Notes: generated from the letters alone by a model not told the origin. A stretch of 64,000 bases of DNA from a bacterium (GCA_021786315.1 JAJYNN010000002.1:398997-462996), one strand, 5' to 3'. Counted from the first letter of the stretch, positions 3,891 through 40,306 are shown. Program-made: numbers and translations.

Positions 3891-4002
3891 GGAATAAATA
3901 GGAATTAAGAATTCAGAATTATGAATTAAGAATATTTGGCTTTAAGTCCATTTGGATGGATTTTATTCTGCATTCTGAACTCTACATTCTAGATTCACAT
4001 TT

Positions 4003-5706
4003 ATGGCACAGCCTGCTCAGTTTGGTATTGAAGATGTCTTATTCAAACAGGGTTTGTTAACCGCAAACCAGCTTTCTTCGATAAAGCTCGAGGCAATCAA
4101 TAGTGGCCAGTCTGCTGAGCAAATTATTGAATCCCATCAGTTAGTGCCTCCGGCTAAGATGGCAGCCGCCCGGTCTCAGCTTTTGGGTGTCCCCTTTATT
4201 AACCTGGAAGGCAAAGCTATTTCCCCTGAGGTTTTAAATTATATTCCTGAAGCCGTAGCTCGCCGTTACCGCTTGGTACCCTTTGACCGTAAAGCCGACA
4301 AGCTTTTTGTAGCTATGGCTGATCCTTTAGATCTCCAGGTTATCCAATTCATTGAGAAAAAATCCGGACTTTTTGTTAAGCCTTACCTGGCGGTTCCGGA
4401 AGATATCTTAAAGGCTGTCTCTGACCAGTACTCCCAGAACTTAACCAGTGAAGTTACCTCTGCCCTGAAGGAAGTAAACTCGATGCAGGCGCCGCACCAG
4501 GAGACTCCGGAAGAAAAGGCCGAGGTCCTTAAAGAGGCGCCGGTTGCCAACATTATCACCCAGCTTTTGGAATATGCTGTTAAGTCCCACGCTTCCGATA
4601 TTCATATCGAGCCTTTGGAGGATAAAACCCGTGTCCGTTACCGGATTGACGGTATTTTGCATGAAAAAGTGATTTTGCCCCGGGGAGTGCATGAGGCGGT
4701 AATTTCCAGGATTAAAATCTTGTCCAACTTAAAGATTGAGGAAAAGAGGTTGCCGCAAGACGGACGTTTTAGCTATACCTCCGGCAAATCTGTGTTTGAC
4801 CTCCGTGTTTCCACTGTCCCTACTATTTACGGTGAAAAGGTAGTGATGAGGTTGCTTCCTAAAAGTACTGTTGCTCCGACTCTGCAGGAGCTGGGACTGC
4901 GGGGTGTGGCTTTGAAAAACCTGGAATTTCAAATTACCCGGCCCCATGGAATCATCTTAATCTGTGGTCCTACAGGTTCCGGTAAAACCACTACCCTCTA
5001 CTCGATCCTGACTAAACTCTCTACCACTAAGGTTAACCTGGTCACTATTGAGGATCCGGTTGAGTACCAGATTCCCGGTGCAAACCAGGTCCAGGCCAAC
5101 CCTCAAATTGGTTTGACTTTTGCCCAAGCCCTCAGGTCTTTCCTGCGGCAAGACCCGAACGTTATCCTGGTGGGAGAGATTCGTGATGCGGAAACTGCCG
5201 ATTTGGCTATTCAGGCAGCCCTCACCGGCCACGAAGTGTTTTCTACCCTGCACACTAATACTGCCTCCGGTGCTCTCCCCAGGCTTTTAGATATGGGGAT
5301 GGAGCCATTCCTTTTAGCTTCCTCTATCAATGCCGTTGTCGGGCAGAGAATTTTAAGAAAGGTTTGCCAGACCTGTAAAGCGCCGTTTACTCCTCCGCCG
5401 GAGGTTGCCGACAATATCCGGAAAGTTTTAGGGAATCTGGTGCCTGCTAATAAACCAATTACTTTGTACAAAGGAGTCGGTTGCGCCAGTTGCGGGCATG
5501 TCGGTTACTCGGGCCGAATTGGAATTTTTGAGGCTCTGATTGTAACCCCTAAAATTATGAAGATGATTTTGGAGCGGACTTCTGCCCAGGAGATAGAAAC
5601 TGAGGCGATATCGGAGGGAATGATTACCTTAAAACAGGATGGGTACTTGAAGGCCTTAGAAGGCGTTACTACTTTAGAGGAGGTACTAAGGGTCGCCGAG
5701 GATTAA
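4003..5706 (+). CDS. pilB: Type IV pilus assembly ATPase PilB (GspE family)
   Basis: 567 aa. T2SE_N-like N-terminus, Walker A GPTGSGKTTTL, and the tetracysteine CQTC...CASCGH motif. Confidence 0.9.
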   Translation: MAQPAQFGIEDVLFKQGLLTANQLSSIKLEAINSGQSAEQIIESHQLVPPAKMAAARSQLLGVPFINLEGKAISPEVLNYIPEAVARRYRLVPFDRKADKLFVAMADPLDLQVIQFIEKKSGLFVKPYLAVPEDILKAVSDQYSQNLTSEVTSALKEVNSMQAPHQETPEEKAEVLKEAPVANIITQLLEYAVKSHASDIHIEPLEDKTRVRYRIDGILHEKVILPRGVHEAVISRIKILSNLKIEEKRLPQDGRFSYTSGKSVFDLRVSTVPTIYGEKVVMRLLPKSTVAPTLQELGLRGVALKNLEFQITRPHGIILICGPTGSGKTTTLYSILTKLSTTKVNLVTIEDPVEYQIPGANQVQANPQIGLTFAQALRSFLRQDPNVILVGEIRDAETADLAIQAALTGHEVFSTLHTNTASGALPRLLDMGMEPFLLASSINAVVGQRILRKVCQTCKAPFTPPPEVADNIRKVLGNLVPANKPITLYKGVGCASCGHVGYSGRIGIFEALIVTPKIMKMILERTSAQEIETEAISEGMITLKQDGYLKALEGVTTLEEVLRVAED

Positions 5707-8566: not shown

Positions 8567-9466
8567 ATGATACCGGCAGTCTTTGGGTTTGTATTAGGAG
8601 CGGTTTTAGGAAGCTTTATTCAAGCAACTGCCGGTAGGATAATTTCTGGAAAAACGTTGAGGGGAAGGTCGTATTGTCTAAGTTGTAAGCATACCCTTAG
8701 GTGGTACGACCTCTTTCCGGTTTTGTCTTATTTAACACTGCGCGGCAGATGCCGCTATTGCCACAAAAGGATTCCGGTTGAGGATTTTTTAGTAGAGATA
8801 ATTATAGCAACGGTTTATGCTCTTCTTTTTTGGGTGAATGTTCCTCAAAGTATTATTTATAACTTCCAACCGGGTTTGTCTTTTACTCTATTCCTTTTAG
8901 ACTTAATTTTTAAAGTATTTATAACCGGAATATTTGCCTTGGTGTTTCTAATCGACCTTAAGTCGGGTCTGATACCGAATGTGGTCACTTATCCGTCTAC
9001 AGTTATAACGATTGTTTATTTACTGGTCTCAAATTTAGTTAAGACCTTAAGTTTTTATCAGGGTTTTCGGGGAAGCCCGTTGGCGAAATACTTAATGCCT
9101 CCCGAATCCAGCTATGTGTATGACCACCTGCTTCGGATTTGGACGCCGCTCGCCTGGACATCGATTGCAGCTGTCACCATAACTTTGATCTTTGTGCTTT
9201 TAATAGTGGTCACAAAAGGCCGGGGTATGGGTTGGGGTGATGTTAAATATGTTTTCTTATTAGGGTTGGCCTTGGGGTTTCCGGATATTATTCCGGCAAT
9301 CTTTATCGCCTTTTTGTCCGGAGCTGTCTTCTCATTATTCCTAATTTTGTTGAGGAAAAAGACTTTTGGCCAAACTGTACCCTTTGGTCCTTTCTTAAGT
9401 TTAGGCGCGATTATTGCTCTACTTTTTGGCACTCAGATTATCAGGATTTACATAGGGATTTTTTAA
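8567..9466 (+). CDS. pilD: Prepilin peptidase / N-methyltransferase PilD (A24 family)
   Basis: 299 aa polytopic membrane protein with the zinc-binding CLSC...CRYC motif in the first cytoplasmic loop. Confidence 0.85.
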   Translation: MIPAVFGFVLGAVLGSFIQATAGRIISGKTLRGRSYCLSCKHTLRWYDLFPVLSYLTLRGRCRYCHKRIPVEDFLVEIIIATVYALLFWVNVPQSIIYNFQPGLSFTLFLLDLIFKVFITGIFALVFLIDLKSGLIPNVVTYPSTVITIVYLLVSNLVKTLSFYQGFRGSPLAKYLMPPESSYVYDHLLRIWTPLAWTSIAAVTITLIFVLLIVVTKGRGMGWGDVKYVFLLGLALGFPDIIPAIFIAFLSGAVFSLFLILLRKKTFGQTVPFGPFLSLGAIIALLFGTQIIRIYIGIF

Positions 9467-11044: not shown

Positions 11045-11581
11045 ATGAATCTGCCTGAAGTATCTAAAAATTCCCGAAGATCCTGTCAAAGTGAAGCCAA
11101 AGGCTTCACTTTGATTGAGCTTATGGTGGCAATTTCTATTATTGCCCTGTTGTCTATTATTGCCCTGTCTGCATTTTCCAGTGTTCAAAAAAGTTCACGG
11201 GATGCAAAGAGGAAATCAGACTTGGGGACCGTCCGGGGAGCTTTAGAACAATACCGTGCCGACCAGCACAATTACCCGGTTAGTGGGAATGTCGGCATTG
11301 GCAACCTTTCCAGTTATTTACCTGATAAGGCTTTAACTAATCCTGCAGCCACAGTCACCTATTTGAATAAATACCCCCGTGACCCCAAATATTCTACTGG
11401 CGGCTGCAGTATTTTGCCCTGTTATAAATACTACTATCAGGCATTGCCCAATGGTTGCAATAATACTACGACTACCTGCAACAGTTATTGCCTCTTTGAC
11501 AGCACGGAAAGCAATGGCAATGCAACAATGGATCCGGCTTGCTCCAATGCCATGTTCAATTACTCAATTACTGCACCATGA
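11045..11581 (+). CDS. Type IV pilin paralog with a long leader and a Cys-rich C-terminal domain
   Basis: ...SRRSCQSEAKG|FTLIELMVAISIIALLSIIAL. The leader DNA contains AAGATCCTGTCAA, which resembles the conserved core of the two-hairpin repeat family. Confidence 0.65.
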   Translation: MNLPEVSKNSRRSCQSEAKGFTLIELMVAISIIALLSIIALSAFSSVQKSSRDAKRKSDLGTVRGALEQYRADQHNYPVSGNVGIGNLSSYLPDKALTNPAATVTYLNKYPRDPKYSTGGCSILPCYKYYYQALPNGCNNTTTTCNSYCLFDSTESNGNATMDPACSNAMFNYSITAP

Positions 11582-12156
11582 GAAAAAACGGATTTAGTGT
11601 GAAGCGCGAAGCCAAGGGTTTCACCCTTGTGGAACTAATGGTGGTAGTCGGAATAATGGGAATTTTGGCTGCTGTGTTGTTACCCCAGCTTGGCAATTTC
11701 AACCGTTTTCAAAGCCTCCAAGCTGCTGCAAACGAGCTTCAAACAAATTTTAGAAGAACGCAAAACAATGCGGCTAGCGGCGTTTCCTGTTCTGCTTCTG
11801 TAAGGGCGACAGATTGGCATTTATTGATTACCGACTCTTCGCACTACTCTATCGCTCCAACGTGTGCCGGTGCTACTTCCACCACCTATACCTTGCCCCG
11901 AGGCATAAAAATTTATAGTGCGTCTCTCGATTCCTGCGAGACTGTTGCTACCGGCAATGGCATTAATTTGTCTAATTTTGGTGTTGCCTACAATAATATT
12001 TCTGCGGCTGTAAACTTCCAAAGTGGAAATACAGGATGTTTAGTCTCCTCCTCCTCAAAACAATCGATCATAAAGTTATTTTTAGATAACGATACCAGCA
12101 AATACATTAAAGTCATAGTTGAAAGAGGCGGTTCTGTCTACTTAAGCTCCAACTAA
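11578..12156 (+). CDS. Minor pilin / pseudopilin (GspH/FimT-like); start at the internal ATG of track ORF 11539..12156
   Basis: MRKNGFSVKREAKG|FTLVELMVVVGIMGILAAV prepilin N-terminus. Confidence 0.6.
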   Translation: MRKNGFSVKREAKGFTLVELMVVVGIMGILAAVLLPQLGNFNRFQSLQAAANELQTNFRRTQNNAASGVSCSASVRATDWHLLITDSSHYSIAPTCAGATSTTYTLPRGIKIYSASLDSCETVATGNGINLSNFGVAYNNISAAVNFQSGNTGCLVSSSSKQSIIKLFLDNDTSKYIKVIVERGGSVYLSSN

Positions 12157-12232: not shown

Positions 12233-12811
12233 ATGAAAAAAACTGCCTCAAAATTCCTCGATACTTCTGGTCAAAGCTTGGTTGAAGTTTTGGTTGCTCT
12301 CACTGTTGCGGCTTTAGTTATTTTAGCTCTGGTTGTGGTTTCGTTAATGGGGCTTAAAAATGCCCAGTTTGCCCAAAATCAGGCAAAAGTGACCAAGTAT
12401 GCCCAGGAAGCAATTGATCAAGTTAGGGCGATCAGGGATAGGAATGGGAATGTAACCTTTCAGAATAACCTGTCTAACCCGGCTTGTACTCCCTGTAGCG
12501 GCAATACTTGCGCTTTTTCCGGGTTGTGGAGCTGTCAACTTACAAAATCCAGCGGATCTCCCTGTACTTTATCTCCCGGAAATGGATGTTACTTAGTGCT
12601 TTCCGCAGATGGAACTAGCCTGAGCGAACCGAGCAGTCTAAATAATGCGAACCAAAATTTAGGTGATGGTTTTTCTAGACAGGTAATTTTGGAAGATGGT
12701 GCTCCCGCTTTGGATTATTCAAAAGAAAAACGGGTAAGGGTTGTAGTCACTTGGACGGATTCCTCAGGAACGCATGAGTCAAATGTCCAAACAATTTTAA
12801 CTAAACATTAA
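12233..12811 (+). CDS. Minor pilin (PilV-like); start at the internal ATG of track ORF 12212..12811
   Basis: MKKTASKFLDTSGQS|LVEVLVALTVAALVILAL, a prepilin-like N-terminal helix. Confidence 0.5.
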   Translation: MKKTASKFLDTSGQSLVEVLVALTVAALVILALVVVSLMGLKNAQFAQNQAKVTKYAQEAIDQVRAIRDRNGNVTFQNNLSNPACTPCSGNTCAFSGLWSCQLTKSSGSPCTLSPGNGCYLVLSADGTSLSEPSSLNNANQNLGDGFSRQVILEDGAPALDYSKEKRVRVVVTWTDSSGTHESNVQTILTKH

Positions 12812-13476
12812 TGAAGCAAAAAGGTTTTAGTGCGAAGCGCGAAGTCAAGGGCTTCACCTTGATTGAAATACTAGTAGTCATGTCTATCATGGCTGTTTTG
12901 GGCTTAATTTTTACCAATACTTTGGTACAAACTTTAAGAAACCAAAATAAAGTTCGGGTAGTAAATCAGGTAAAACAAAATGGCCAGGTTGGCCTGGACC
13001 GGATATCCAATGAGATTCGCCAGGCAGAAAGGGTTTTTTGTATTAACGATAACCAGGCAAATACAGATACTCTTATTCTTTTCCGGCAGGGAGTTTATAC
13101 AAGGATCCGCTTTGCTGCACCTTCCCCTGCAAATAACCCTACTGCTAACGGCTATATTTCCATTGATTATCCTGATGCTGCCAATGCTGACTGCAACGGC
13201 GCTCAGTCTTTACCCCAGTCCCTGACAGATCAGGACACTAAAAATGGAGTGTCTATAGACTTTAATCCCTTAACTGCTGGGTTCCCGAAACTTCGTGATC
13301 CTCTCGTTTCTGATAAGATATTTACTAAGAACTCATTGCCGGGTTACCCTGACACAATAAACATTAAGTTCAGGGCCACTAGCGGGGTGTCAGCAGGCCG
13401 GATGTTTGAAAACCTGGTGTCGGATAACGGTGTCTTATTCGATACTACGGTGGAAGTAAGAGGAGGAAGAATGTAA
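12811..13476 (+). CDS. Minor pilin (PilW-like)
   Basis: MKQKGFSAKREVKG|FTLIEILVVMSIMAVLGLIF. The leader is near-identical at DNA level to that of the 11578 gene. Confidence 0.55.
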   Translation: MKQKGFSAKREVKGFTLIEILVVMSIMAVLGLIFTNTLVQTLRNQNKVRVVNQVKQNGQVGLDRISNEIRQAERVFCINDNQANTDTLILFRQGVYTRIRFAAPSPANNPTANGYISIDYPDAANADCNGAQSLPQSLTDQDTKNGVSIDFNPLTAGFPKLRDPLVSDKIFTKNSLPGYPDTINIKFRATSGVSAGRMFENLVSDNGVLFDTTVEVRGGRM

Positions 13477-14396
13477 TGTTTCAAAAAGGACAAACAATCA
13501 TTATTTTACTTTTGGTGGTGGTTATCGCTTTGGGTATTGGTTTGACTGTGGTTGGCCGAAGCATTACTGAAATTTCTACCTCCACAAAAACAGAGGAATC
13601 TACCCGAGCCTTTGCGGCAGCAGAAGCCGGGATCGAACGCGCACTTTCAAGGAATTCCGGGATAGGCCAAGGAAGCGCCGGGAATTTGAGTTTGGGAAGC
13701 TCTGATTTGACTAATCAATCCAGTGCCGATGTCAGCTGGAACCCGCTTTTGCCTGACACCAGTTTGGCTTTAGAATACCCGCCATTCGGCAAAGAAAGTT
13801 TCGCCCAGGTTTGGCTGGCAGATCCAATCCACTCAACAAACGGATACCCGAACGCATCTTATAACCAGAATAATTTTGATATTTATTTCGGCAAGATTGA
13901 TGATACCTATTACGCAGCAAATCCTGACCAAAAACCTGCTATTGAGGTTGTGGTTGTTTACCGTGACGGAAATAATTTTAATAGTATCAGCAATTTCTAT
14001 GATTCTTATTCCGGTACGAATCCCAGCAGCAGGAACAACAGTTTTTCCGGATGCGCTGCCTTAAAGCCTGCAAGCATAGTAACTAATCAAAACTCTAATT
14101 CAGGGAGAATTTTTTATTGTCAGGTTCATATCACGGGTTTTCCTTATAACGTTGGAGCAAACCAGTATCCGGTGATGGCGAGGATAAGAGTTTTGTACAG
14201 CAATATTAGCCACCCCGTGGCTCTCCAGCCTACCGGAGGCTCATCCCTGCCACGGCAGGTTGCAATTTTCACCTCGACTGGTGAGTCCGGAGGAGCACAG
14301 AAAACTATACGAACTATCCAGGTTTTCCAGCAAAAATCCGTCATGCCTAACCTTTTTAACTATGCACTATTTTCTGCAGGAGCACTAAACAAATGA
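13476..14396 (+). CDS. PilX-like pilus assembly protein (PilX N-terminal domain)
   Basis: N-terminal TM segment followed by RAFAAAEAGIERAL, typical of PilX_N. 306 aa. Confidence 0.55.
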   Translation: MFQKGQTIIILLLVVVIALGIGLTVVGRSITEISTSTKTEESTRAFAAAEAGIERALSRNSGIGQGSAGNLSLGSSDLTNQSSADVSWNPLLPDTSLALEYPPFGKESFAQVWLADPIHSTNGYPNASYNQNNFDIYFGKIDDTYYAANPDQKPAIEVVVVYRDGNNFNSISNFYDSYSGTNPSSRNNSFSGCAALKPASIVTNQNSNSGRIFYCQVHITGFPYNVGANQYPVMARIRVLYSNISHPVALQPTGGSSLPRQVAIFTSTGESGGAQKTIRTIQVFQQKSVMPNLFNYALFSAGALNK

Positions 14397-14854
14397 CGAC
14401 AAAAAAAGAAAAGGGCTTCACCCTTGTAAGGCTACCTTCGCTTCGCGAACGATCTTGCAAGGGCTTTACCCTTGTGGAAGTGATGTTGGCGGTGGCGGCG
14501 GTTATCTTTTTAGGCTTTTTAGTTATGAGTCTGCCTTCGGCAATCTCTTCAATTAACCGGAGCAGGCACACTTCAATTGCAAAAGACATCGCCAGCCGTC
14601 AAATCGAAAAACTAAGAGAACAGACTTACGCTAATTTAGCCAACGGTACCAGCTCGTTTACCGATTCGGATTTGGATAGTCTGAATCAATCTTCTGCTTC
14701 CTACGAAATTGAAGACTGCCCCTCAAGTGTTTGTACGGACATTGGCGTTTATAAATTAAAACAGGTAAAAGCTTCAGTTTCTTGGAATGAATTAGGTGAT
14801 AATAAAAAAGTGGAGATGACTACACTTGTTGGTGAAGGAGGAATAGGACAATGA
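14393..14854 (+). CDS. Pseudopilin-like protein whose leader carries a repeat insertion that duplicates the KG|FTL site
   Basis: MTTKKEKGFTLVRLPSLRERSCKGFTLVEVMLAVAAVIFLGF. The RLPSLRERSC segment is encoded by hairpin 1 of the two-hairpin repeat. Confidence 0.5.
   Translation: MTTKKEKGFTLVRLPSLRERSCKGFTLVEVMLAVAAVIFLGFLVMSLPSAISSINRSRHTSIAKDIASRQIEKLREQTYANLANGTSSFTDSDLDSLNQSSASYEIEDCPSSVCTDIGVYKLKQVKASVSWNELGDNKKVEMTTLVGEGGIGQ
14428..14458. repeat. Two-hairpin repeat, partial copy E (hairpin 1 only) inside a pseudopilin leader, flanked by a 17-bp imperfect direct repeat
   Basis: AAGGGCTTCACCCTTGT-aAGGCTACCTTCGCTTCGCGAACGATCTTGC-AAGGGCTTTACCCTTGT. Confidence 0.6.
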
Positions 14855-15498
14855 GGAAATTTTCAATTTTCAATTTTCAATTTTCAAATTCTGGTTTTAC
14901 CTTGGCGCGAAGTGCCAAAGGGAATTCTTTGGGATTCACTTTGGTGGAAACTTTAGTCGCTTCAGGAGTGGCCTTGATAGTGGGCACCCTATTGGTAGGA
15001 ATTTTAGTCAACCACAGTGGTTTGTCTTACAAAGAAAATGCCTTGGTAAACGAAGGCTTAAGCTTAAATGATGCTATGGGTAAGATTGACAACAATATCC
15101 GGGAATCTGCAGCGGTGGCAATCGGCTACCCGGAAAGTACCCCAACTTATACAACAGGAAACTCTGTTCTAGTGCTAAAGCTTCCCGCCCTATCCTCCTC
15201 CGGAACTATAGAAAACGTTTACGATTATGCGGTTATTGCCGCAGATATAACCCAACCAAAGGTGCTCCGGCTCCAAATTTTTCCCGATTCCCAAAGTATC
15301 CGCCAGCCGGCAAATACTGTGCTCACTACCCTCCTCAATTCCGTTACATTTAATTATTTAGACAGGAATGGAAATAGTGTAACTCCGGCAGATGCTTTTA
15401 AGGTTTCGGTTAATTTATCAGTTCTTTCGCAGACTGGGTCTATTGGTTCAAGCCGGTCGTCGGTTTCGACGACATCACTGAGGAACTATTCAAAATAA
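14851..15498 (+). CDS. Pseudopilin-like protein with an extended leader
   Basis: MRKFSIFNFQFSNSGFTLARSAKGNSLG|FTLVETLVASGVALIVG. Contains four AATTTTC repeats and the palindrome TTGGCGCGAAGTGCCAA. Confidence 0.5.
   Translation: MRKFSIFNFQFSNSGFTLARSAKGNSLGFTLVETLVASGVALIVGTLLVGILVNHSGLSYKENALVNEGLSLNDAMGKIDNNIRESAAVAIGYPESTPTYTTGNSVLVLKLPALSSSGTIENVYDYAVIAADITQPKVLRLQIFPDSQSIRQPANTVLTTLLNSVTFNYLDRNGNSVTPADAFKVSVNLSVLSQTGSIGSSRSSVSTTSLRNYSK
14858..14885 (+). repeat. Perfect tandem heptanucleotide repeat (AATTTTC)x4 in codons 3-11 of the pseudopilin gene
   Basis: aattttcaattttcaattttcaattttc read directly from the sequence. A unit length of 7 means copy-number change would shift the reading frame. 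Confidence 0.8.
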
Positions 15499-17276
15499 TG
15501 AAAAAAGAATCTGGCCAGATATTAGTTTTAGCAATAGTTGTTTCCGCTTTGGTTTTAATTAACACTTTGGTTATCATTGCCGGCTCGCAGATTTTTTCTC
15601 AGAACTCAAACTACAGTGTACAGGCCGGGCAAGCTGTAGCTTTGGCTGAGGCAGGAGTAGATAAGGCTGTCGCCTCACTTAACGCTTTTGGCGGAAATTA
15701 CTCGGGAGAGCCGGAAACTGCTTTAGGGTCGGGTTCGTTTTCGGTAGTAATAACTACCCCTGATGCTAACACCAAGGTTGTTGAGTCTACGGGTTATGTC
15801 CCTTCTAAGGCTAACTATAAAGCTAAAAAAAGCGTCAAAATTGTTGTTTCTAAAGGAGTGGGTGTCGCTTTTGTTTATGGTATCCAGGCAGCTGAAGGCG
15901 GATTGCAGATGTCCAACAACAGCACCGTTAACGGTTCTGTCTACTCGAATGGGAATATTATTATGAATAATAACGCCCGAATAACCGGCGATGCATATGT
16001 TGCGGGAGGGACAACCCCTAACCCCGACCAGTCTGAAGACTGTTCCTCGACCAATTGCACCGATTTCGTTTTCGGAAAAAATATAGGCGGAGAAAACCGT
16101 TTAGATGCGGCTCAAAGCTTCCAGCCTACAGTCAGTAATGTCTTAAATAAAGTTTCCCTCAAGTTAAAAAAGACAGGGTTCCCTTCCGACATTACCGTTC
16201 GTTTACTGCAGGACAATAACGGGCAGCCAAATAAGAACCAGGTTATTGCCTCAACGGTGCTTAGCGCCGGGTTAGTTGGTAGTGACTATGGTTTTGTTGA
16301 TGTAGCGTTCCCGGCTCCACCGAGCTTAACCTCAGGAACAACTTATTGGATTGTGCTCGATGCTTCGTCCGATTCTTCAAACTATTGGTCTTGGTCAGGG
16401 GATTTACTCCAGGGTTACACCGCAGGAAAAGCAATGTGGTCTCCTGACTGGCAGGCAGGAAACCCTTCCTGGAACTCTGTTTCCCTGGACTTGGGCTTCC
16501 AGACTTATCTTGGGGGCCAAGCGACGTATATTCAGGGTGCAAACGGAATAAGTATCGGGGGGAATACGCACGCGCATAGTTTAAAGGACTTAACAATTAC
16601 CGGTGGTGCTTATTACCAAGCTGCGACAAACATAACCGCCAGTAGCTACCACCCCGGAACTCCTGACCCGGCTGTGAGATCAATGCCAATTTCTGAACCG
16701 AATATTGCTACTTGGAAAAATGTTGCTTCAGACCCGAATCAGGGAGGCGGTACCTATATTGGGGATATTACTTCTTGTAGGGCAACCTTAGGTCCTGGTA
16801 AATATGTCGGTAACGTAACTTTCTCTAACAGCTGTAATGTAACTATCAAAGGTTTGGTTTGGATTACCGGCGATTTAAATTTAAACAACAACAATATACT
16901 TCAATTGGATCCGGCGTTTGGAGTTTCGTCAGGTGTAATTATCGTAGACGGTGTGATTAATATTGATAACAACAACAAACTCAAAGGTTCAGGCACTGCC
17001 GGAAGTTACTTAATGGCTCTGTCTACCCACGACTCTACTGTAGACGGATCTGTCGCCATTAATGTCTCCAACGGGGGCAATACCGGTATTTTATATACTA
17101 ATAAAGGCATAATTAGCCTCCAGAATACCAATCACCTGACAGAGGTTAGCGGATGGCAGATTGACCTGAGCAATGGGGTAATTATTGACTATGATACCGG
17201 GCTTGCAAGCTCCTTCTTCTCTTCGGGTCCTTCAGGATCCTACTCCCTGGTTAAAGGTACATACCAGCTAAAGTAG
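15498..17276 (+). CDS. Large pilus-associated secreted protein (PilX_N-like anchor, Asn-rich beta-helix-like C-terminus); putative tip adhesin
   Basis: 592 aa. N-terminal TM followed by AVALAEAGVDKAV. Asn-rich repeats (NLNNNNILQLD, IDNNNKLKGSG). Position inside the pilus locus. Confidence 0.4.
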   Translation: MKKESGQILVLAIVVSALVLINTLVIIAGSQIFSQNSNYSVQAGQAVALAEAGVDKAVASLNAFGGNYSGEPETALGSGSFSVVITTPDANTKVVESTGYVPSKANYKAKKSVKIVVSKGVGVAFVYGIQAAEGGLQMSNNSTVNGSVYSNGNIIMNNNARITGDAYVAGGTTPNPDQSEDCSSTNCTDFVFGKNIGGENRLDAAQSFQPTVSNVLNKVSLKLKKTGFPSDITVRLLQDNNGQPNKNQVIASTVLSAGLVGSDYGFVDVAFPAPPSLTSGTTYWIVLDASSDSSNYWSWSGDLLQGYTAGKAMWSPDWQAGNPSWNSVSLDLGFQTYLGGQATYIQGANGISIGGNTHAHSLKDLTITGGAYYQAATNITASSYHPGTPDPAVRSMPISEPNIATWKNVASDPNQGGGTYIGDITSCRATLGPGKYVGNVTFSNSCNVTIKGLVWITGDLNLNNNNILQLDPAFGVSSGVIIVDGVINIDNNNKLKGSGTAGSYLMALSTHDSTVDGSVAINVSNGGNTGILYTNKGIISLQNTNHLTEVSGWQIDLSNGVIIDYDTGLASSFFSSGPSGSYSLVKGTYQLK

Positions 17277-24815: not shown

Positions 24816-27800
24816 TCAGGCTTGAGTTACGGTGAAGGTGACAGCGCCGCTTTGAGGATCGTACGTTACCGAGCTAAAGTGGCGGCCTTTTTCTTGGACT
24901 ATTTCTTTATATGCTGCAATCTTGTCCAAGTCTGTTTCGGTCAGCTTGTTTATTGAAACCGGGATTCTCAAAGTTCCGTTGGCGCCCAGAATGTTGTTTG
25001 TCATAGCGATTTTCATGCTTCCTGCCATCCGCTCATCCATGCCCTGCCAGTACCTGTCAGCATTGCCATTTCCGTTAATTCCTGCCTCTGGCTCGGTTAC
25101 TTCAGGAGAGGATAGCAGTTCCTTAATATCTGCCTGGGTCGATGTTCCGTTCTGCTTCGGAGGTGTTTTTGCTGACGGAGTACTTTGGGAATTATTTCCG
25201 GCCTCTTTTGCCTCAATTGCCCGTTGGATGTTACGGTCAGGCGTTCCATATTGCTGGTAGTGCTGGTAGGCATCGAAAAGCATTCTGGCAACTAACTTAA
25301 TTTGCATCTGGTTCAATAGCTTATTGTGCGATTCCAGTTGCAGATATTTCCCCAGATTCATTCCGTCAACATCTGTAAAGTCCGGCATTCTTAAATTAAG
25401 GTTGAGTACTTGTTCGGTGACTGGAAGGTGAGCATCTTCACCCGGCCTCAAAGATCTTTGGATCTCCGGCTCGAATAATTTGTAGAATTGGTCGCTGATT
25501 TTATAGTAGTTTTGAGAAAGGATATAAATCCTTTCAGCTACAGCGTTAGCTAAATCTTCTTCATTTTTGAAGTTTCCGCTTTTGCGGATGGAATCTGTAA
25601 GTGAACCCAGGGTGATGTCATTGTCCCCGGTGATTGTCCGTAAAACATTAATGTCGCTGACTGCGGTTTTGGCGGTAACTTCCGCTTCCCTGTCGGGAAT
25701 CAGCTGGTCATTGTCCTGGATCAACCCAAAAACCCTGGTTGTAACAGCATCTTCAAAACTACTCTCCAGCTCCTCAACTTTAGTTTCTTCTGCTATTGGC
25801 TGGTTATCTTCAATTGGTTGGGTATTCGCAAGGTTCTCGGTAGTTGTCTTTATAGGAGCTACCATTCGATCGTGATGGTCTGGATCAGGAGCATATTCAC
25901 CAATCTCCAATCCTCTCTTTTCTCTGGCGAGCATTCTATAAACTGCCATTACCTCCTTGTCGTATAAGGTGGGGTTATCAGGGCTTTTTGCATTGATCCA
26001 GGTAGCTCCGTTCTTTAGATCATTGTCAATGTTATCTAGGATTTGTTGCTCCACCTCTTCCCTGTCTCCTATGGCTTCAAAGTACTGTTCAACCAACTCT
26101 GCCTCGGAAAGATTATTTCCTATTTGGTCCGGAGCTGAATCTGCATCAATCTGTATGGATTCAGTCTGGTTCGGGTTAGAATTGGTTGGTCCAGGTTTTT
26201 GTATTGGGGCTATCATAAATTCTGGGTTGTTCGGGTCTGGTTTAAACTCTCCGATTTCTAACCCCCTTTTGTCTTTGGCCAGTTTTTGCACTGCAGCTAA
26301 TTGCTGTTTATCGTAGTCGGTTAGGTCGTCGCCATGTGCCGGTATGGAGATGGTTCCAGAGGCAACGGATTTGTCAATATTATCCAAAGCAAGAGTTTCA
26401 AACTCTTGCCGATTAGATCCAAGCAGATTATAAAATTGTTCGGCTAAGTCATTGTTTGTATCTTTAGAAGATGGATTGGTTGTTTCTGCTTGTTGTCCTG
26501 CTCTCTGTATCTTATCTGCTTCTTCTTGAGCATGATGTCTTTCGGTTTCGGGCTTATAACCCTGGTCTTTATTCGGTCCAAGCGGTTTTCTTGGCGCCAA
26601 AATAGTGGGAATAAATCCAGCTGCGGGATCAGAAGGACCGGCAATATTTGTGGGTATTGCATGAAGAATTGCATAACCAGGTGAATGGGTGGTGATAGTA
26701 TCTACACCCTGTCCGACGGAGGTGGCAACAATGGAGCGGCCTAAATTTCCGGCTGCATCATGCTCAACATGGGCAATCTCTACAAATTTCGCCAACTGGA
26801 CAACTTTGCCGTTCTCTACTTTAAAGAATTGGTTAAGGTCAGAACCGGAAGGAAGATTAATATGGCCATGGCTATCCTCACTAACTACCAATTTAATGAC
26901 ATCACGAGCCTGGTCGGCTGCATCATTGGGGGTAATTAAAATTTCGAAATTCTTGAAAGTTTTTACTCCGTCGGCTCCGGTTAAGATATCGTGGTTAATA
27001 TCCGTCGGCACGGTATTTTCCCGGATAACATTGGACATATCAATGTCTACTGTTCCGTCAGGGTTAGTGTTTAGCTGAAGCTGGAGCTCATCCCGGTCGT
27101 AGACGCCGGGAGTTCCGTTATCAATGAACCTGGTCCGGTGAGCCTTGTCCGCACTATCTTTGAAAGCATCCAAAGGGTTTTTGGTCTCCGTTTTTCCGGG
27201 GATTTCGGTGGTTGATGTATTAAAACCAGCGGCTTTGAGGTCGGACTGGAGTTTGTCAAAATCAGTCCCGGGAAGCTTGGATTGGTCAAAATCTATTTGG
27301 GCATCATTGCCAACGGTTCCGTGATACTCAACCCCGGTAGATTTATCAGTAAGCACTACCTCGTGGGTTTTCCCGATAACGGTAAGGTTCATCTTGTCGG
27401 TGGAGAAGCTTTCGGTGTTGCCGGAGGTAACAACTGTTTTAATATGGTCAGCGCTCAGCCCCGGGTTTTTGGGTGTCAACTCATGCGCTACATTGAGCCC
27501 GGCGCCGCCGATAAAATTTTGGACGGCGGCTGCTTCAGCAACGTTTGGCCGGCCAAATAAATTGCCGAGGTGTTTGGCGCCACTCTCCACCATTGTTTCG
27601 CCCATGTTTATCCCCAGGGCTCTGCCTCCTACAGCCATGACTTCCTGGGAAATCAATCCTCCCGCAAGACCCGAGATTGCTCCGAATGCCACTGCTTTTG
27701 CCGCTTCTGCCCGACGGTATTTATTAAAATTACTGGTTTGTTCTTGTTGGATATCAGCAAAGTTATTCCAGAACCTTTCATCTGCTTCTATCAACTTGCC

Positions 27801-29681
27801 TGTAATTTGTTCATCGGTTAACCCGGCACCTTTCAATTTTTCCTTGGCGATAACCTGGGCTTTAACAAGTTCCAGCTTTTCTACCTCAGTGGTGAACCGG
27901 TCAGAAAACTGGATTAAATCGACTTTATTGAGGATGCCGTAATCGATACGGGCGTCAATTTCGGCAACTTTTTCAATCAGCTTATTAATGGACAGCTCTG
28001 TAGAAAGGTCAGCATTTGTCAGTGTATCCAGTTCTGAAGATAAACCTTTGGCGGTAACCCTTTCCCCATCCTCTGAGATATTGAGGCGGAACTCATCAAG
28101 CTTAGCCCTTCTTTTGTCCGCCTTCCCTTTATCAGTTTTACCATAAGCACGGTCCCTTTCGTTAAGCTCAAAATCTCTTTTAAGGTCTGTCCATCGCCTG
28201 AGCCCGGCAAAAACTCCGCCTAGGGCTGCTCCAGCCAGAGGGAAACCTGTAGCTGCCTTTGATCCCCAGCCTAAAATCCCTTTTGCCCCAGCCCCGGCTG
28301 CCCCAAAAGCTACTCCAATAAAGAATGGGTTTGCCAGGAGTCCGCGGTATTGTCCTCCCTGCAGCCAGTTCATTGTCTTTTCCAGTTTTGAATAATCTGC
28401 CTCAGTAGTCGCGGCATTGATGGTTCGGGCAAATTGGAAATCCAATCTTTGGTCAAGGTTATCCAGTCCCTCAGTTCCCCGTTCGAAGGACAGCCGGATT
28501 TTTTGGGCAACCTCAAGAATATTGTTACCGATAAATTTAGCGTCTTTAATATAGGCTGCTACATCGGGGTTATTTTTAAGATCTTCGATCAGGGATTGAG
28601 ATTCACTGTTAAATTCATCAACCGTTATCTCTCCTTTGGTAAAACGGGTAATTAACCCGGAAACCTTATTATTAAACTCTGCATTTTCATACTTTGCGGA
28701 TTCTTCCTCTTTGTAAACCTTGCCTTCCGCAACCCGCTCCGCAACGCTGGTAGTTTGAAGTTTTTGTTTTTCCCGGGCGTCGTTTACTTCCTTCAAAGCG
28801 CCGGATAAAGAATCAATTTCGGTAAAGTAAATCCCGCTTTCAATTGCAGCCGCTTGGCATTGCTCAGCTTTAGTATATTTATAATATTGCTCCCCTAGCC
28901 TGAATTTTGCTGCCCTGAACCATTCCAGCGGGTTTAACCTGTTTTTAACATGCAGTTGTTCCCGGACATATTCCCCTGCCTGCTCCCGGGCCATCTTTTT
29001 GGCATCATCGTCGACATTGGCTACACCGATGGTATAACGCTCCACTGAAGACGGCGGTGTAGGTGGGGTTGGTGGAGGTGGGGTTGGCGGGGTTGGTGGA
29101 GGTGGCTCTTCATCCTTCGGAGGCACAAACAGCTCCCGGCGTTTTTTCAGGGTATCAATGGCAATTTCGACATTCTTGTTGTAATCTGGCGTGATTCGCC
29201 CGTCCATCCGCATACGGTAGATCTCTTCCCTTACCCTGGCTTGGTAATAACGGGGTACCCATCTCCAGGGTAAATCAAAGTAGTCCTTGGTATTTTTTCT
29301 TTGGGTTAAAGTCCGGAGTATATCCTGCAGCTCTTGGGCACGGGCCAAATCCTTATTTTTGCGCGCTTCTTTGTGTTGAGCTTCGAGATAGGTCAGCATT
29401 TCATCAACCGGGATTCCTTCTTTCTGCTCCTTGATGACTTTCCCTTTCTCATCTGCCAGTTCAAGTGTTTCCGTACCGTCGCCTCCAGCCTCCAGGTCGG
29501 CAATCCTGGTTTTTATGGTATCGAGTTCAATGCTCTGGGCTTTGGTTCTTTTGGCTTCGGGAATAGTTTCAAAAAGCGACACCCCGTTTTTAAGGGATTC
29601 CACTACCCTCTCGTGAGTTAACCTTTCTTTTCCCTTCGCAGCCTCAGGGGAGATGACAGAGATATCAGGGCTGGTGACCAT
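24816..29681 (-). CDS. Giant hypothetical protein (1621 aa) with a Pro/Thr linker, a Gly-rich hydrophobic segment and internal ~75-aa repeats
   Basis: Single uninterrupted ORF. Contains PPPPTPPTPPPPTPPTPP; GVAFGAAGAGAKGILGWGSKAATGFPLAGAALGGVFAGL; and the duplicated segments ...LAKDKRGLEIGEFKPDPNNPEFMIAPI... and ...LAREKRGLEIGEYAPDPDHHDRMVAPI.... No recognisable enzymatic motif. Confidence 0.6.
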   Translation of the reverse strand: MVTSPDISVISPEAAKGKERLTHERVVESLKNGVSLFETIPEAKRTKAQSIELDTIKTRIADLEAGGDGTETLELADEKGKVIKEQKEGIPVDEMLTYLEAQHKEARKNKDLARAQELQDILRTLTQRKNTKDYFDLPWRWVPRYYQARVREEIYRMRMDGRITPDYNKNVEIAIDTLKKRRELFVPPKDEEPPPPTPPTPPPPTPPTPPSSVERYTIGVANVDDDAKKMAREQAGEYVREQLHVKNRLNPLEWFRAAKFRLGEQYYKYTKAEQCQAAAIESGIYFTEIDSLSGALKEVNDAREKQKLQTTSVAERVAEGKVYKEEESAKYENAEFNNKVSGLITRFTKGEITVDEFNSESQSLIEDLKNNPDVAAYIKDAKFIGNNILEVAQKIRLSFERGTEGLDNLDQRLDFQFARTINAATTEADYSKLEKTMNWLQGGQYRGLLANPFFIGVAFGAAGAGAKGILGWGSKAATGFPLAGAALGGVFAGLRRWTDLKRDFELNERDRAYGKTDKGKADKRRAKLDEFRLNISEDGERVTAKGLSSELDTLTNADLSTELSINKLIEKVAEIDARIDYGILNKVDLIQFSDRFTTEVEKLELVKAQVIAKEKLKGAGLTDEQITGKLIEADERFWNNFADIQQEQTSNFNKYRRAEAAKAVAFGAISGLAGGLISQEVMAVGGRALGINMGETMVESGAKHLGNLFGRPNVAEAAAVQNFIGGAGLNVAHELTPKNPGLSADHIKTVVTSGNTESFSTDKMNLTVIGKTHEVVLTDKSTGVEYHGTVGNDAQIDFDQSKLPGTDFDKLQSDLKAAGFNTSTTEIPGKTETKNPLDAFKDSADKAHRTRFIDNGTPGVYDRDELQLQLNTNPDGTVDIDMSNVIRENTVPTDINHDILTGADGVKTFKNFEILITPNDAADQARDVIKLVVSEDSHGHINLPSGSDLNQFFKVENGKVVQLAKFVEIAHVEHDAAGNLGRSIVATSVGQGVDTITTHSPGYAILHAIPTNIAGPSDPAAGFIPTILAPRKPLGPNKDQGYKPETERHHAQEEADKIQRAGQQAETTNPSSKDTNNDLAEQFYNLLGSNRQEFETLALDNIDKSVASGTISIPAHGDDLTDYDKQQLAAVQKLAKDKRGLEIGEFKPDPNNPEFMIAPIQKPGPTNSNPNQTESIQIDADSAPDQIGNNLSEAELVEQYFEAIGDREEVEQQILDNIDNDLKNGATWINAKSPDNPTLYDKEVMAVYRMLAREKRGLEIGEYAPDPDHHDRMVAPIKTTTENLANTQPIEDNQPIAEETKVEELESSFEDAVTTRVFGLIQDNDQLIPDREAEVTAKTAVSDINVLRTITGDNDITLGSLTDSIRKSGNFKNEEDLANAVAERIYILSQNYYKISDQFYKLFEPEIQRSLRPGEDAHLPVTEQVLNLNLRMPDFTDVDGMNLGKYLQLESHNKLLNQMQIKLVARMLFDAYQHYQQYGTPDRNIQRAIEAKEAGNNSQSTPSAKTPPKQNGTSTQADIKELLSSPEVTEPEAGINGNGNADRYWQGMDERMAGSMKIAMTNNILGANGTLRIPVSINKLTETDLDKIAAYKEIVQEKGRHFSSVTYDPQSGAVTFTVTQA

Positions 29682-30995: not shown

Positions 30996-31163
30996 AGGCT
31001 GGAGAGAAGCGGGAGAAGTGAAAAAAGGATAATGGAAATTCCCCCAATTACCGATAAAACAATCCAAAAAACTTTAAATTTCTTTGAATACATGATTAAA
31101 AGTCCTAAGTACTAATTTCTAATTACTAAATAATTACAAAAACCCTAAGACAAGAACATTATA

Positions 31164-35799: not shown

Positions 35800-36537
35800 A
35801 TGAATATTGAATTAGCAGCAGAACAAATTGGTCACATCGGTGCTTTGCCGGTTACTAACACCATGCTGATGAGCTGGGTGGTAACGGCAATCTTGAGTAT
35901 TACCGCCATTATCGTTTCCCGGAAAGTTACCCTTGTTCCGGCAGGATTACAAAACTTTTTTGAATTTGTTATTGAATATGCCTACAACATGACTGAAGAA
36001 TTGGCTCACTCCAAAGCCAAGGTATTTTTCCCGTTTATCATGACCTTCTTCCTTTTCATTATCACTTCCAACTGGCTGGGGCTTTTGCCTGGATTCGGAA
36101 CTATTGGTTTTAATGAGATTAAGGATGGCAAGGAAACTTTCATTCCCCTGCTCCGCTCCATTAACGCCGACCTGAATATGACTTTGTCCCTGGCTTTAGT
36201 CTCAGTAATAGTTACCCACTTTTTTGCGGTTAGATACTTAGGAATTAAAGATTATTTAAAGAAATGGTTTGCTTTAAACCCCATTTTTCTATTTGTTGGC
36301 CTTTTAGAGTTGGTGGGAGAAGTTACTAAAGTAGTCTCGCTTTCCTTTCGGCTTTTTGGTAATATATTTGCGGGCGAAGTTGTACTGGCAACAATTGCCG
36401 GTATTTTTGCTTTTGTGGCACCTCTCCCCTTCTATTTCTTGGAAATTATTGTGGGGTTTGTACAGGCAGCAGTCTTTATGATGCTTACCTTAACGTTTAT
36501 GGTGCTTTTAACGGAAAAACATGGTGAGGAGCATTAG
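35800..36537 (+). CDS. atpB: F-type ATP synthase F0 subunit a
   Basis: 245 aa. SLSFRLFGNIFAGEVVL contains the conserved Arg of subunit a. Confidence 0.85.
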   Translation: MNIELAAEQIGHIGALPVTNTMLMSWVVTAILSITAIIVSRKVTLVPAGLQNFFEFVIEYAYNMTEELAHSKAKVFFPFIMTFFLFIITSNWLGLLPGFGTIGFNEIKDGKETFIPLLRSINADLNMTLSLALVSVIVTHFFAVRYLGIKDYLKKWFALNPIFLFVGLLELVGEVTKVVSLSFRLFGNIFAGEVVLATIAGIFAFVAPLPFYFLEIIVGFVQAAVFMMLTLTFMVLLTEKHGEEH

Positions 36538-36679
36538 ATTTAAGATTTAAGAGGTAAGATTTAAGAATGTTAAAATTCCTAAATCCTAATTCCTAAATCT
36601 TAATTCTTGCCAATTTAGGTTTGAATTAAGTATTTAAATGGAGTTTATCTTAAAAGATAGCTCGGAAAGGAGAATTTAA

Positions 36680-36884
<205 letters not shown>

Positions 36885-36886
<2 letters not shown>

Positions 36887-36955
36887 AGTCTAGAGTCGAG
36901 AGTCCGGAGTCTGGAAATAACTTTCTAGTCACTTGACTCTAGCGACTAGACTCTG
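36885..36955 (+). promoter_or_regulatory. Long imperfect hairpin in the atpE-atpF intergenic region
   Basis: AGAGTCTAGAGTCGAGAGTC ... GACTCTAGCGACTAGACTCT form ~15 bp of pairing. Candidate mRNA processing/stability or attenuation element. Confidence 0.4.
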
Positions 36956-37839: not shown

Positions 37840-39428
37840 ACAACGTTATCAGCTTAGTTGAAAAAGAAATAGAAAACTTAAAAACTTCAGCCGTCATGGA
37901 AAATGTCGGAACCGTGGTGGAAGTGGGAGACGGAATCGCTAAAGTTGAAGGTTTGTCCCAGGTCCAGATGTCTGAGTTGGTAGAATTTTCCGGCGGAATC
38001 CAAGGACTAGCTTTGAATTTGGAGGAGCATTCTGTTGGTGTCATTGTTTTGGGCGACTTTACCCAGATCAAAGAAGGTGATGAGGTAAAAACCACCGGTA
38101 AATTACTTCAGGTTCCGGTGGGTGATGAATTAGCCGGCCGGGTGGTTGATGCAATGGGTAATCCTTTGGATGGTAAAGGCCCAATTAAAACCAAAAAATC
38201 CTATCCGGTGGAAAAAGTTGCTCCGGGTGTTATTACCCGAAAACACGTTTCTGTACCTCTCCAAACCGGTATCAAAGCCATTGATGCCATGATCCCCATT
38301 GGCCGGGGTCAAAGGGAGTTAATTATCGGCGACCGGAATACCGGAAAGACCACCATCGCCATTGATACCATCATCAACCAAAAAGACGTTATCTGTATTT
38401 ATGTGGCCATCGGCCAAAAGGCTTCCAAGATTGCTCAACTGGTCAACAAGCTGGAAGAAAACGGGGCCATGGAACACACCATTATTGTTTCCGCTTCCGC
38501 TGCTGATCCGGCAACTATGCAATATCTTGCTCCCTACTCCGGTTGTGCTATGGGCGAATATTTTATGGATGAAGGAAAAGATGCCTTAATCATCTATGAT
38601 GATTTGTCCAAGCACGCTTGGGCTTACCGCCAGGTTTCCTTGCTTCTCCGAAGGCCTTCCGGCCGTGAAGCTTATCCGGGAGATGTCTTTTACCTTCATT
38701 CCCGACTGCTCGAGCGGGCGGCCAGAATGGATGAAAAATATGGCGGCGGATCACTCACTGCCTTGCCGGTGATTGAAACCCAGGCAGGTGACGTTTCTGC
38801 TTACATCCCAACTAACGTTATCTCCATTACCGACGGACAAATTTATCTGGAAAGTGACCTTTTCTATGCCGGTACCAGACCTGCCTTAAACGTTGGTTTA
38901 TCTGTTTCCCGGGTGGGTGGTGACGCCCAACTGAAAGCCATGAAAGCTGTGGCCGGCAAGCTGCGTTTGGACTTGGCCCAGTTTAGGGAATTGGCTGCTT
39001 TTGCTCAATTCTCTTCGGACTTGGATCCGGCTACCAAAGCCCAAATTGACCGGGGCCGCAGAATTACCGAGATCTTAAAGCAACCGCCTTATAACCCGGT
39101 TCCGGTTGCCGAGCAAATTGCTATTCTTTGGGCTGTGACTCAGGGACATCTGGATGAGATTGAAGTGGAGAAAGTTCGGGAATTTGAAGAAAGATTCTTA
39201 ACTCACTTAAGACTCTCAGACAAAAAACTTCTTTCTGACATTACTGAAAAGAAAGTATTGGATGAGGGCTTAACAGCGCAGTTAGAAAAAGCGGTGAAGA
39301 AAGTTTTAGCACAATTTTCTGGAGCGTCAGAGTATCAGAGTGTTAGCGTATCAGAGGAGAAAAGTTCCGACACTCCGACACGCCGAAATTCTGATACGCC
39401 GAAAACAAAGAAAGGAAAGAAAAAATAA
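37836..39428 (+). CDS. atpA: F-type ATP synthase alpha subunit
   Basis: 530 aa. [18 protein letters not shown] (P-loop) and the full alpha-subunit architecture. C-terminal K/S/T-rich tail. Confidence 0.95.
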
Positions 39429-40306
39429 TGCCGAGCACCAGAGATCTAAGACGACGGATTAAATCCATTAAAAACACCAGCCAGATTACCAAGGCTATGC
39501 AGATGGTTTCGGCTACCAAGATGAGAAAGGCTCAAAACCAAGCCTTACAAGCTCGTCCCTATACTCAAACCTTATTGACAGTCCTAGCTCAAGCTCAGGG
39601 GAAAATTAATATTGAAGCTCATCCCCTGCTTTCCGGCAGTACCGGTACAAAGAGAGGGGTTCTCTTCTTCTCGACGGATAAGGGGCTTTGTGGGGCCTTA
39701 AACACGAACTTGATGAGAATTATGAATTCTGAATTACGAATTATGAATAAACAAACAATTGTTTATACTGTTGGGAAAAAAGGCAGGGATTTTGTTGTAA
39801 GAACTGGAAATGATCTAGCCGCTGATTTCGAAAACCAGGAGAAAGTTGAATTTAGACAGGCTAGTTCGTTAAGGAAGATGGTTATTGATGCCTATCTTAA
39901 GGGAGAGGTTGGTGAGGTCTATCTTCTCTACCCTCATTTTCTCTCAACACTCCGACAGGAACCCCGAATGGTGAAGATTTTGCCTATTGATCAGGGTTTA
40001 TTTAACGAATTTGTCACCCAAAATACCCAGGAACAAGGAGTTTCTTCCAGTGAATTTTTATTTGAACCCAATATGGATCAAATCCTGGATTTTGCCTTAA
40101 CTCACTTTATTGAAACCCAAATTTATCAGGCACTTTTGGAAACCAAAGCCTCAGAACATTCTGCAAGAATGATTGCCATGCAGAATGCGACAGACAATGC
40201 CAAGGATCTGGTCTCGGATCTTACTTTGGCATATAATCAAATCCGCCAAAATGCCATTACAACTGAACTTTTGGAAATTACATCAGCGGGAGCTGCCTTG
40301 GAGTAG
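39428..40306 (+). CDS. atpG: F-type ATP synthase gamma subunit
   Basis: 292 aa. IKSIKNTSQITKAMQMVSATKMRKAQ N-terminal helix. Contains an unusual MRIMNSELRIMNK insert encoded by GAATT-rich repeats. Confidence 0.85.
   Translation: MPSTRDLRRRIKSIKNTSQITKAMQMVSATKMRKAQNQALQARPYTQTLLTVLAQAQGKINIEAHPLLSGSTGTKRGVLFFSTDKGLCGALNTNLMRIMNSELRIMNKQTIVYTVGKKGRDFVVRTGNDLAADFENQEKVEFRQASSLRKMVIDAYLKGEVGEVYLLYPHFLSTLRQEPRMVKILPIDQGLFNEFVTQNTQEQGVSSSEFLFEPNMDQILDFALTHFIETQIYQALLETKASEHSARMIAMQNATDNAKDLVSDLTLAYNQIRQNAITTELLEITSAGAALE

Follow-up and report, generated by a model that had tools for sequence, protein, structure and literature searches.

A perfect heptanucleotide tract in the predicted leader of a type IV minor pilin gene from a CPR bacterium

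A stretch of DNA of 64,000 nucleotides (nt) from an uncultured bacterium (GCA_021786315.1, JAJYNN010000002.1:398997-462996; here, the window, with positions counted from its first letter) contains a type IV pilus (T4P) operon in which one minor pilin gene begins with a perfect heptanucleotide tandem repeat, (AATTTTC)n. Homologues of the encoded protein of 215 amino acids (aa) are recorded under the name of “Candidatus Daviesbacteria”, a lineage within the CPR (candidate phyla radiation)/Microgenomates. A preliminary description had proposed the repeat as a candidate phase-variation switch. The gene, its translation start, its leader, and its two neighbors are as follows.

14851..15498, plus strand: type IV minor pilin-like coding sequence of 215 aa, identified by its open reading frame (ORF), homologues, and alignment.
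14835..14841, plus strand: Shine-Dalgarno sequence AAGGAGG, 9 nt 5' of the ATG at 14851, in a context kept in the closest relative (locus L005; see below).
14851..14934, plus strand: leader-coding segment of 28 codons, MRKFSIFNFQFSNSGFTLARSAKGNSLG, delimited by the conserved residues in alignment A1.
14393..14854, plus strand: upstream minor pilin of 153 aa, whose leader has an insertion of 45 nt that is lineage-specific and bears a duplicated KGFTLV.
15498..17276, plus strand: protein of 592 aa that contains a choice-of-anchor R domain (NF041539, E = 1.6e-10) and an N-terminal hydrophobic segment.

Tandem Repeats Finder reports (AATTTTC)x4.3 at 14858..14887 on the plus strand (period 7, 100% matches), and direct reading from 14851 gives ATG AGG A-(AATTTTC)x4-AAATTCT-GGT TTT ACC TTG. 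Thus, the four perfect units of the preliminary description are borne out by both. They had been assigned to codons 3 to 11; they do lie inside the gene, while their 28 nt cover codons 3 to 12 and are followed by a degenerate fifth unit, AAATTCT, that extends to 14892. The whole array (14858..14892) is translated as K-FSIFNFQFS-N, which forms part of the leader. When a 21-nt (AATTTTC)x3 probe was compared with the window allowing up to 3 mismatches, the tract was the sole match, against an expectation of 0.02 from 100 dinucleotide shuffles.

The unit length is not a multiple of 3, and the proposal that a change by one unit shifts the frame was confirmed by rebuilding the gene in silico with 0 to 8 units. 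The frame is kept with 1, 4, or 7 units (products of 208, 215, and 222 aa, respectively), and a stop codon is reached after 25 to 82 aa with 0, 2, 3, 5, 6, or 8 units. The AATTTTC orientation contains no stop codon in any frame, and its complement, (GAAAATT)n, contains TGA. Because only AATTTTC is open in all frames, it is in this orientation that the coding arrays are found.

The 215-aa query has no Pfam match at E≤0.01 and a weak match to the HpsC pseudopilin in NCBIfam; among its homologues, PF07963 is present in P0012 and P0022, the latter annotated as a prepilin-type N-terminal cleavage/methylation domain protein. In alignment A1 (27 sequences), residues G28, F29, L31, and E33 are nearly invariant and are followed by a hydrophobic helix, and the N terminus has the arrangement of a class III signal, with G28 immediately before F29-T-L-V-E33 and then TLVASGVALIVGTLLVGILV. 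Because of these conserved residues and the helix behind them, cleavage is predicted after G28, with the mature pilin beginning at F29. The repeat is predicted to lie wholly inside the 28-residue leader that the prepilin peptidase would remove. The gene had been described as that of a pseudopilin; a surface component of the pilus it remains, and more specifically it encodes a type IV pilin-like minor pilin of a T4P operon, with the repeat confined to the putatively cleaved leader.

At its 5' end, the ATG at 14851 overlaps the TGA stop codon of the preceding gene (ATGA), which suggests translational coupling with that gene. At its 3' end, the start of the 592-aa gene overlaps the pilin stop codon (TAATG), so that polar effects on the 592-aa gene are probable if the frame shifts upstream. 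The 592-aa choice-of-anchor R protein may be a pilus-associated adhesin, translationally coupled to the repeat-bearing pilin.

The tract is absent from all 25 orthologues (53 to 74% identity; length, about 190 aa), which start with MRGFTL, MKGFTL, or other short leaders and have 2 to 20 residues ahead of the glycine at position -1 (G-1). The closest relative, L005, with 74% identity, a syntenic operon, and the same Shine-Dalgarno/ATGA context, has ATGAGAGGCTTTACC (that is, MRGFTL) at the corresponding site and reads ...GGTCAATGAGAGGCTTTACCCTTTTGGAA. Compared with it, the leader-coding segment has the following parts.

14857..14934, plus strand: in-frame lineage-specific insertion of about 78 nt, absent from L005, the extra nucleotides standing after ATGAG.
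14893..14904, plus strand: first pseudo-cleavage motif GFTL, inside the 78-nt insertion, after the array module that ends at 14892.
14905..14931, plus strand: GC-rich hairpin-forming piece, TTGGC-GCGAAGT-GCCAA and CCAAAGGGAATTCTTTGG.

The front part of the insertion ends in a G-F-T-L of its own (NSGFTLA), in the form seen in other CPR pilin leaders. Growth of the array in place was considered and judged unlikely, the L005 sequence ATGAGAGGCTTTACC being without an AATTTTC seed. Because L005 offers no such seed, and because the gene's own G-FTLVE site follows the insertion, we infer that a leader module was captured. Accepting this, the 78-nt in-frame insertion would have brought the perfect heptanucleotide tract into this lineage. 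Its front, M-R-K-FSIFNFQFS-N-S-G-F-T-L, would represent a complete array-type leader module of the kind borne by unrelated CPR/Microgenomates pilins, probably taken up by recombination between pilin 5' ends and placed ahead of the gene's own G-FTLVE.

A second lineage-specific insertion is present in the upstream gene at 14393, where 45 nt are flanked by a 17-nt direct repeat, AAGGGCTTyACCCTTGT, that encodes KGFTLV. By comparison of the sequences, the leader-coding ends of these pilin genes evidently constitute hot spots at which small insertions arise, and the duplications at pilin 5' ends look like target duplication or template switching. A duplication of the same kind as that of gene 14393 is found in L009, one of the metagenomic loci described below. 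At four places in the operon (14393-14500, 14893-14934, 11578-11640, and 12811-12870), a pseudo-cleavage GFT or GFS is followed by a GC-rich hairpin of the GCGAAG type and then by the real KGFTL[IV]E.

In JGI metagenomes, a protein-guided scan did not find a close relative of the gene. Via the peptide KFSIFNFQ, the same scan retrieved four unrelated pilin genes (27 to 43% identity) in other metagenomes, and all four (L007 to L010) have an AATTTTC tract directly after the ATG and Lys codons, with 3 or 4 perfect units and one degenerate unit each. Their leaders, with the residues on the far side of the cleavage site, are as follows.

L007: MKNKFSIFNFQFFRQSA, then FTLLE.
L008: MKKFSIFNFQFSKKRG, then FTLIE.
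L009: MIKKFSIFNFQFLKKIGAG...NGAG, then FTLIE.
L010: MKFSIFNFQFSKNSRG, then FTLVE.

In the pilin gene adjoining that of L009, the leader array is another one, (AAAGTTC)x4-5, and yields MNKSSKFKVQSSKLNIG before FTLIE; in L010, the spacers before pilC and before another pilin gene contain (GAAAATT)n arrays. In L010, pilC (at 2008) is preceded by only a (GAAAATT)n array, in a 33-nt spacer.

For a wider survey, the L008 pilin was used as query, leaders were collected from the 120 best homologues (Levybacteria and relatives, in a major-pilin family), and 118 leaders were scored. Residue identity at lag 7 is 15.6%, versus 6 to 9% at other lags, and lag-7 periodicity is present in 44 of the 118 leaders (shuffles: mean, 20.5; maximum, 29). 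The heptad-encoded leaders fall into families typified by FSIFNFQFS, by LSSLNSHLS and FSTLNSQFS, by KNSKLKIQN, and by NQELRIKN...IIHDSLFII. Period-7 units were confirmed in the DNA of three leader families, and one has a 14-nt period. Stretches of the FSIFNFQ type occur in 13 of the 118 leaders by visual reading of the list, all of them 9 to 11 residues long, and none of the 13 has the 7-unit in-frame form. Heptamer-encoded leaders are common among Microgenomates pilins. In their DNA, many of the leader arrays are degenerate (e.g., AATTTTC AACTCTC AATTCTC AATTCTC AACTACC), having decayed by substitution with length and frame kept, and some contain the ATG itself (GAATTAT-GAATCAA-GAATCAA).

Short FSIFNFQ-repeat ORFs (P0029-P0061) are found in Moraxella lacunata, Desulfonema magnum, and a Symploca sp., which indicates that (AATTTTC)n arrays are widespread outside the CPR. 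A synthetic 40-aa query with an FSIFNFQ leader proved useless for counting pilin leaders, because it gave short, probably spurious ORFs across (AATTTTC)n arrays, and an HMMER search with the N-terminal 48 aa gave one irrelevant match.

The recurrence of the tract could have its reason at the level of the nucleic acid, as a periodic site bound by a regulator of pilus genes, a promoter (antisense or internal), or a translation-initiation region that is A/U-rich and unstructured. Translation would then be incidental, and selection would hold the length near 28 nt. The same DNA, in about four copies, stands at the same position after the ATG in unrelated pilin genes with almost no synonymous drift, and the array peptides share no chemistry (F-rich, S/L-rich, or K-rich), so that the peptide is not the conserved thing. 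Arrays outside leaders are likewise located at gene starts (pilB at 4003, pilC in L010, and, in L015, an ATG within (GAATNNN)n), and the reverse strand of the tract contains TTGAAA-17 nt-GAAAAT, which agrees with a sigma-70 promoter at 9/12 positions. However, this promoter match is weak, the region has 4 such matches versus 1.6 expected, and the RNA folds only marginally better than shuffles (z = -2.0). An mRNA structure sequestering the Shine-Dalgarno sequence was rejected on the same marginal value. Moreover, all 25 orthologues function without the tract, and the units vary by gene and lineage (AATTTTC, AAYTCTC, GAATCAA, and AAAGTTC), which argues against a single sequence-specific binder. 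On balance, we hold a role of this kind to be quite improbable.

Arrays of the same period are not limited to pilin genes. A scan of the window for arrays of at least 4 units with at least 80% self-identity revealed seven arrays of period 7, for an expectation of 0.03; periods 5, 6, and 8 to 12 gave none. Most of the seven are intergenic; the six other than the AATTTTC tract are imperfect and have 4 or 5 units each. They are located as follows.

3899..4001, no strand assigned: inverted pair (GAATTAA)n and (ATTCTNN)n, abutting the pilB ATG at 4003.
31100..31132, no strand assigned: degenerate period-7 array between convergent genes.
36536..36608, no strand assigned: inverted pair (AGATTTA)n and (AATTCCT)n, upstream of the ATP synthase operon.
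36883..36955, no strand assigned: (GAGTCNN)n array and inverted partner, between atpE and atpF.
39716..39750, plus strand: (GAATTNN)x5 array, in frame inside atpG (39428..40306), with no net insertion.

The atpG array (GAATTAT GAATTCT GAATTAC GAATTAT GAAT) encodes RIMNSELRIMN in the essential gamma subunit of ATP synthase. That it was inserted there is ruled out: aligned with solved gamma subunits (PDB chain 9itj_G), the protein is colinear and shows no change in length. The inverted array pairs would fold as hairpins, and the units are A/T-rich except for GAGTCNN. At the pilB start (4003; region 3965-4005), the array directly abuts the gene, and no Shine-Dalgarno-like sequence is visible there. 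Array length is alike in coding and noncoding DNA, which fits a mutational process rather than selection for a switch.

Phase variation is defined by a variable copy number. In our searches, n is 4 in every full-length record (P0001, found on 3 contigs, is a single-member cluster). An exact pattern composed of both flanks and 1 to 9 units had no match in JGI metagenome or GTDB genome contigs, and a protein-guided search of GTDB genomes for the locus did not find relatives. The exact-product look-up gave no record for the 215-aa protein, which is recorded from NCBI/ENA and not from Logan, nor was any record found for the two alternative-start products that out-of-frame alleles would yield, namely, MARSAKG... 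(198 aa) and MGFTLVE... (189 aa). Thus, for the phase-variation proposal, the frameshift premise holds and the variation itself was not encountered.

Some Logan contigs (k=31) break at the tract. L001 (SRR13178629) ends at 14886, inside the tract; L002 (SRR22746126), a contig of 1.4 kb, ends at 14887; and L003 and L004 (SRR13178629) start at 14858. A further contig, L011, also starts inside a leader-coding heptamer array. The pure repeat of four units is 30 nt long and alone would not break a k=31 graph. The L001 end requires another locus, AA(ATTTTCA)4 preceded by a base other than G (i.e., another MKK-type leader module in the sample), and such a locus, if it has at least 5 units and then AAA, would account for the start at 14858 as well. 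In the case of L002, any alternative path would have to share the whole left flank; same-locus heterogeneity or a coverage dead end is therefore indicated, a suggestive result that is not decisive. As evidence of polymorphism, the breaks were downgraded by a de Bruijn-graph simulation, since only the L002 end specifically fits heterogeneity at the same locus. Independently of their cause, breaks of k=31 assemblies at heptamer arrays imply that pilin genes are systematically truncated or missing in Logan-type contigs.

These assemblies also bear on the question of whether the tract is a chance low-complexity run or an assembly artifact. The region is A/T-rich, and k=31 assemblies do break there. 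However, about 0.02 to 0.03 such tracts are expected, the NCBI/ENA record shows the same four units and flanks, as do both contig edges from independent Logan samples, the frame is uninterrupted, and L005 keeps the start context. Chance or artifact is effectively refuted by the statistics together with the independent assemblies.

We favor the reading, to which we assign a probability of roughly 0.45, that the tract is a young, tolerated, labile microsatellite module in the cleaved leader, allowing low-frequency switching at best, and not a dedicated high-frequency switch. The array would be a product of the period-7 repeat-generating process. The leader is presumably permissive because it is cleaved off, and with no stop codon in any frame of AATTTTC the array would be translated and tolerated for as long as it stays in frame. 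Slippage by 1 or 2 units would shift the frame and truncate the pilin at 32 to 82 aa, and the 592-aa gene downstream would probably lose its translational coupling as well. The tract may thus constitute a mutational ON/OFF weak point with a slippage rate that is probably low. Low-frequency switching at best is proposed because there are only four units, the same length as in the noncoding arrays, and the idea of a dedicated switch is weakened because period-7 arrays occur window-wide and the same tract recurs in unrelated pilins. Phase variation by this repeat is plausible but unproven.

Several observations weigh against the tolerated-module reading. Two pilins with mature parts that are 93% identical have the leaders MKIKIFNKKG and MIKKLIKNCKLKIVNWRRG, and leader lengths peak at 10 and at 16 to 17 aa, about 7 aa (3 units) apart. 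Such fast turnover and such spacing of the length peaks indicate that slippage operates at these sites, as phase variation requires. Therefore, slippage or indels do occur at leader sites, and single-unit steps pass through out-of-frame OFF states. In addition, the perfection of the tract implies recent or ongoing homogenization, and arrays may be more concentrated at pilin 5' ends than tolerance by itself would lead one to expect. Finally, in the de Bruijn-graph simulation, a mixture of alleles with 4 and at least 5 units makes contigs end at 14887 and start at 14858, as seen in L002 and L003.

A serious rival is that the tract is a contingency locus, in which slipped-strand mispairing, at a useful rate, would reversibly switch the minor pilin, and by loss of translational coupling possibly the 592-aa protein too, ON (n=1, 4, or 7) or OFF. 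Arrays on other pilins would then make up a multigene pilus “phasome” that varies episymbiont attachment or host range. The frame arithmetic is as required, the product is a component of the pilus surface structure and its gene lies in a T4P operon, and other CPR loci have several array-bearing pilin genes per operon; the rapid leader turnover between near-identical pilins and the breaks at 14887 and 14858 are as this reading predicts. However, the tract has only 4 units, versus 7 to 38 in validated switches, and a variant allele was not found in the databases searched. The count is about 4 units in each of the five AATTTTC leaders, and a 7-unit in-frame leader is found in 0 of 118 homologues. 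Many leader arrays are degenerate and would slip poorly, noncoding arrays are equally long, and a second locus of the type needed for L001 would explain the breaks without any polymorphism here. We consider a contingency locus somewhat doubtful.

The tracts of opa genes have 7 to 28 units, in variable number. In contrast, the present tract has 4 units, no length variant was observed, and about 4 units are found in every instance; the leader here is of class III (prepilin), not a Sec signal, and the organism belongs to the CPR. The likeness to Neisseria opa is otherwise considerable: a repeat with a unit length indivisible by 3 occupies the cleaved-leader segment of a surface protein, in-frame counts give the full protein and other counts a frameshift, and several paralogous genes carry the same unit. 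The contingency reading draws on this architecture, since slippage of the CTCTT repeats in the leader-coding region of opa switches expression, at about 1e-3 per generation (PMC3960869).

It also draws on Haemophilus influenzae, in which a screen took heptanucleotide tracts of at least 3 units as candidate phase-variation repeats, and (AATTTTG)14 inside hmw1A of strain PittAA was linked to a frameshift ascribed to altered tract length (PMC2651432). The hmw heptanucleotide tracts have 13 to 38 units, vary from strain to strain, and mostly lie in the promoters of hmw1A and hmw2A (PMC2651432). The 7-nt unit (AATTTTG there, AATTTTC here) and the association with adhesin genes are shared, whereas the tract described here has 4 units and variation was not found. 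With these 4 units, it is above the 3-unit screening threshold, yet it is of the same length as the noncoding arrays of the window.

The short tandemly repeated repetitive (STRR) sequences of cyanobacteria are heptanucleotide arrays with units such as CCCCAGT. The arrays of the window resemble them in being dispersed, tandem, mostly intergenic, and strictly of a 7-nt period, and within the 64-kb window the excess of period 7 is evident. They differ in their mostly A/T-rich units (of the GAATTNN or AATTTTC type, and also GAGTCNN), which are not the STRR consensus units, in having 4 to 5 units, often as inverted pairs, in their clustering at pilin gene starts, and in their CPR host, which is not a cyanobacterium. 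Type IVb pilins have leaders of 15 to 30 aa, and the 28-aa segment ending in G-1 makes a long leader of the same sort; unlike in type IVb pilins, the length here is due to a recent insertion and is not a feature of the class, as the orthologue leaders have 2 to 20 residues.

Taken beyond this gene, the arrays might represent a clade-wide hypermutable or recombinationally mobile pilin leader module in Microgenomates/CPR bacteria that toggles pilins as a “phasome,” which we think unlikely. If it were true, it would be the first repeat-based phase variation described in the CPR, with unusually short tracts (about 4 units) in a cleaved prepilin leader. A description of this class of period-7 repeats in CPR genomes was not found in our literature search. 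Papers on the T4P of Saccharibacteria present type IV pili as the main known organelle for attachment, host recognition, and DNA uptake of CPR episymbionts. If leader arrays slip at useful rates, CPR bacteria would have a stochastic system of pilus variation. Even without useful slippage, period-7 arrays at pilin 5' ends, in intergenic hairpins, and in atpG matter for annotation and assembly.

The pilus operon that houses the gene is complete and has the order pilB-pilT-pilC-peptidase-pilins-pilM-pilN-pilO-like. It contains about nine pilin-like genes with N_methyl motifs, and PilM_2 is encoded downstream of the 592-aa gene. The PilT-like and PilC-like ORFs after pilB are named from their size and position. 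Two further members are located as follows.

4003..5706: PilB/GspE ATPase, with its start codon at 4003.
8567..9466, plus strand: prepilin peptidase, with domain matches to A24_N_bact (PF06750) and Peptidase_A24 (PF01478).

Elsewhere in the window, an ORF of 1,621 aa is present on the minus strand at 24816-29681; where Logan annotates the same contig (L006), a Pfam family is not recorded for it.

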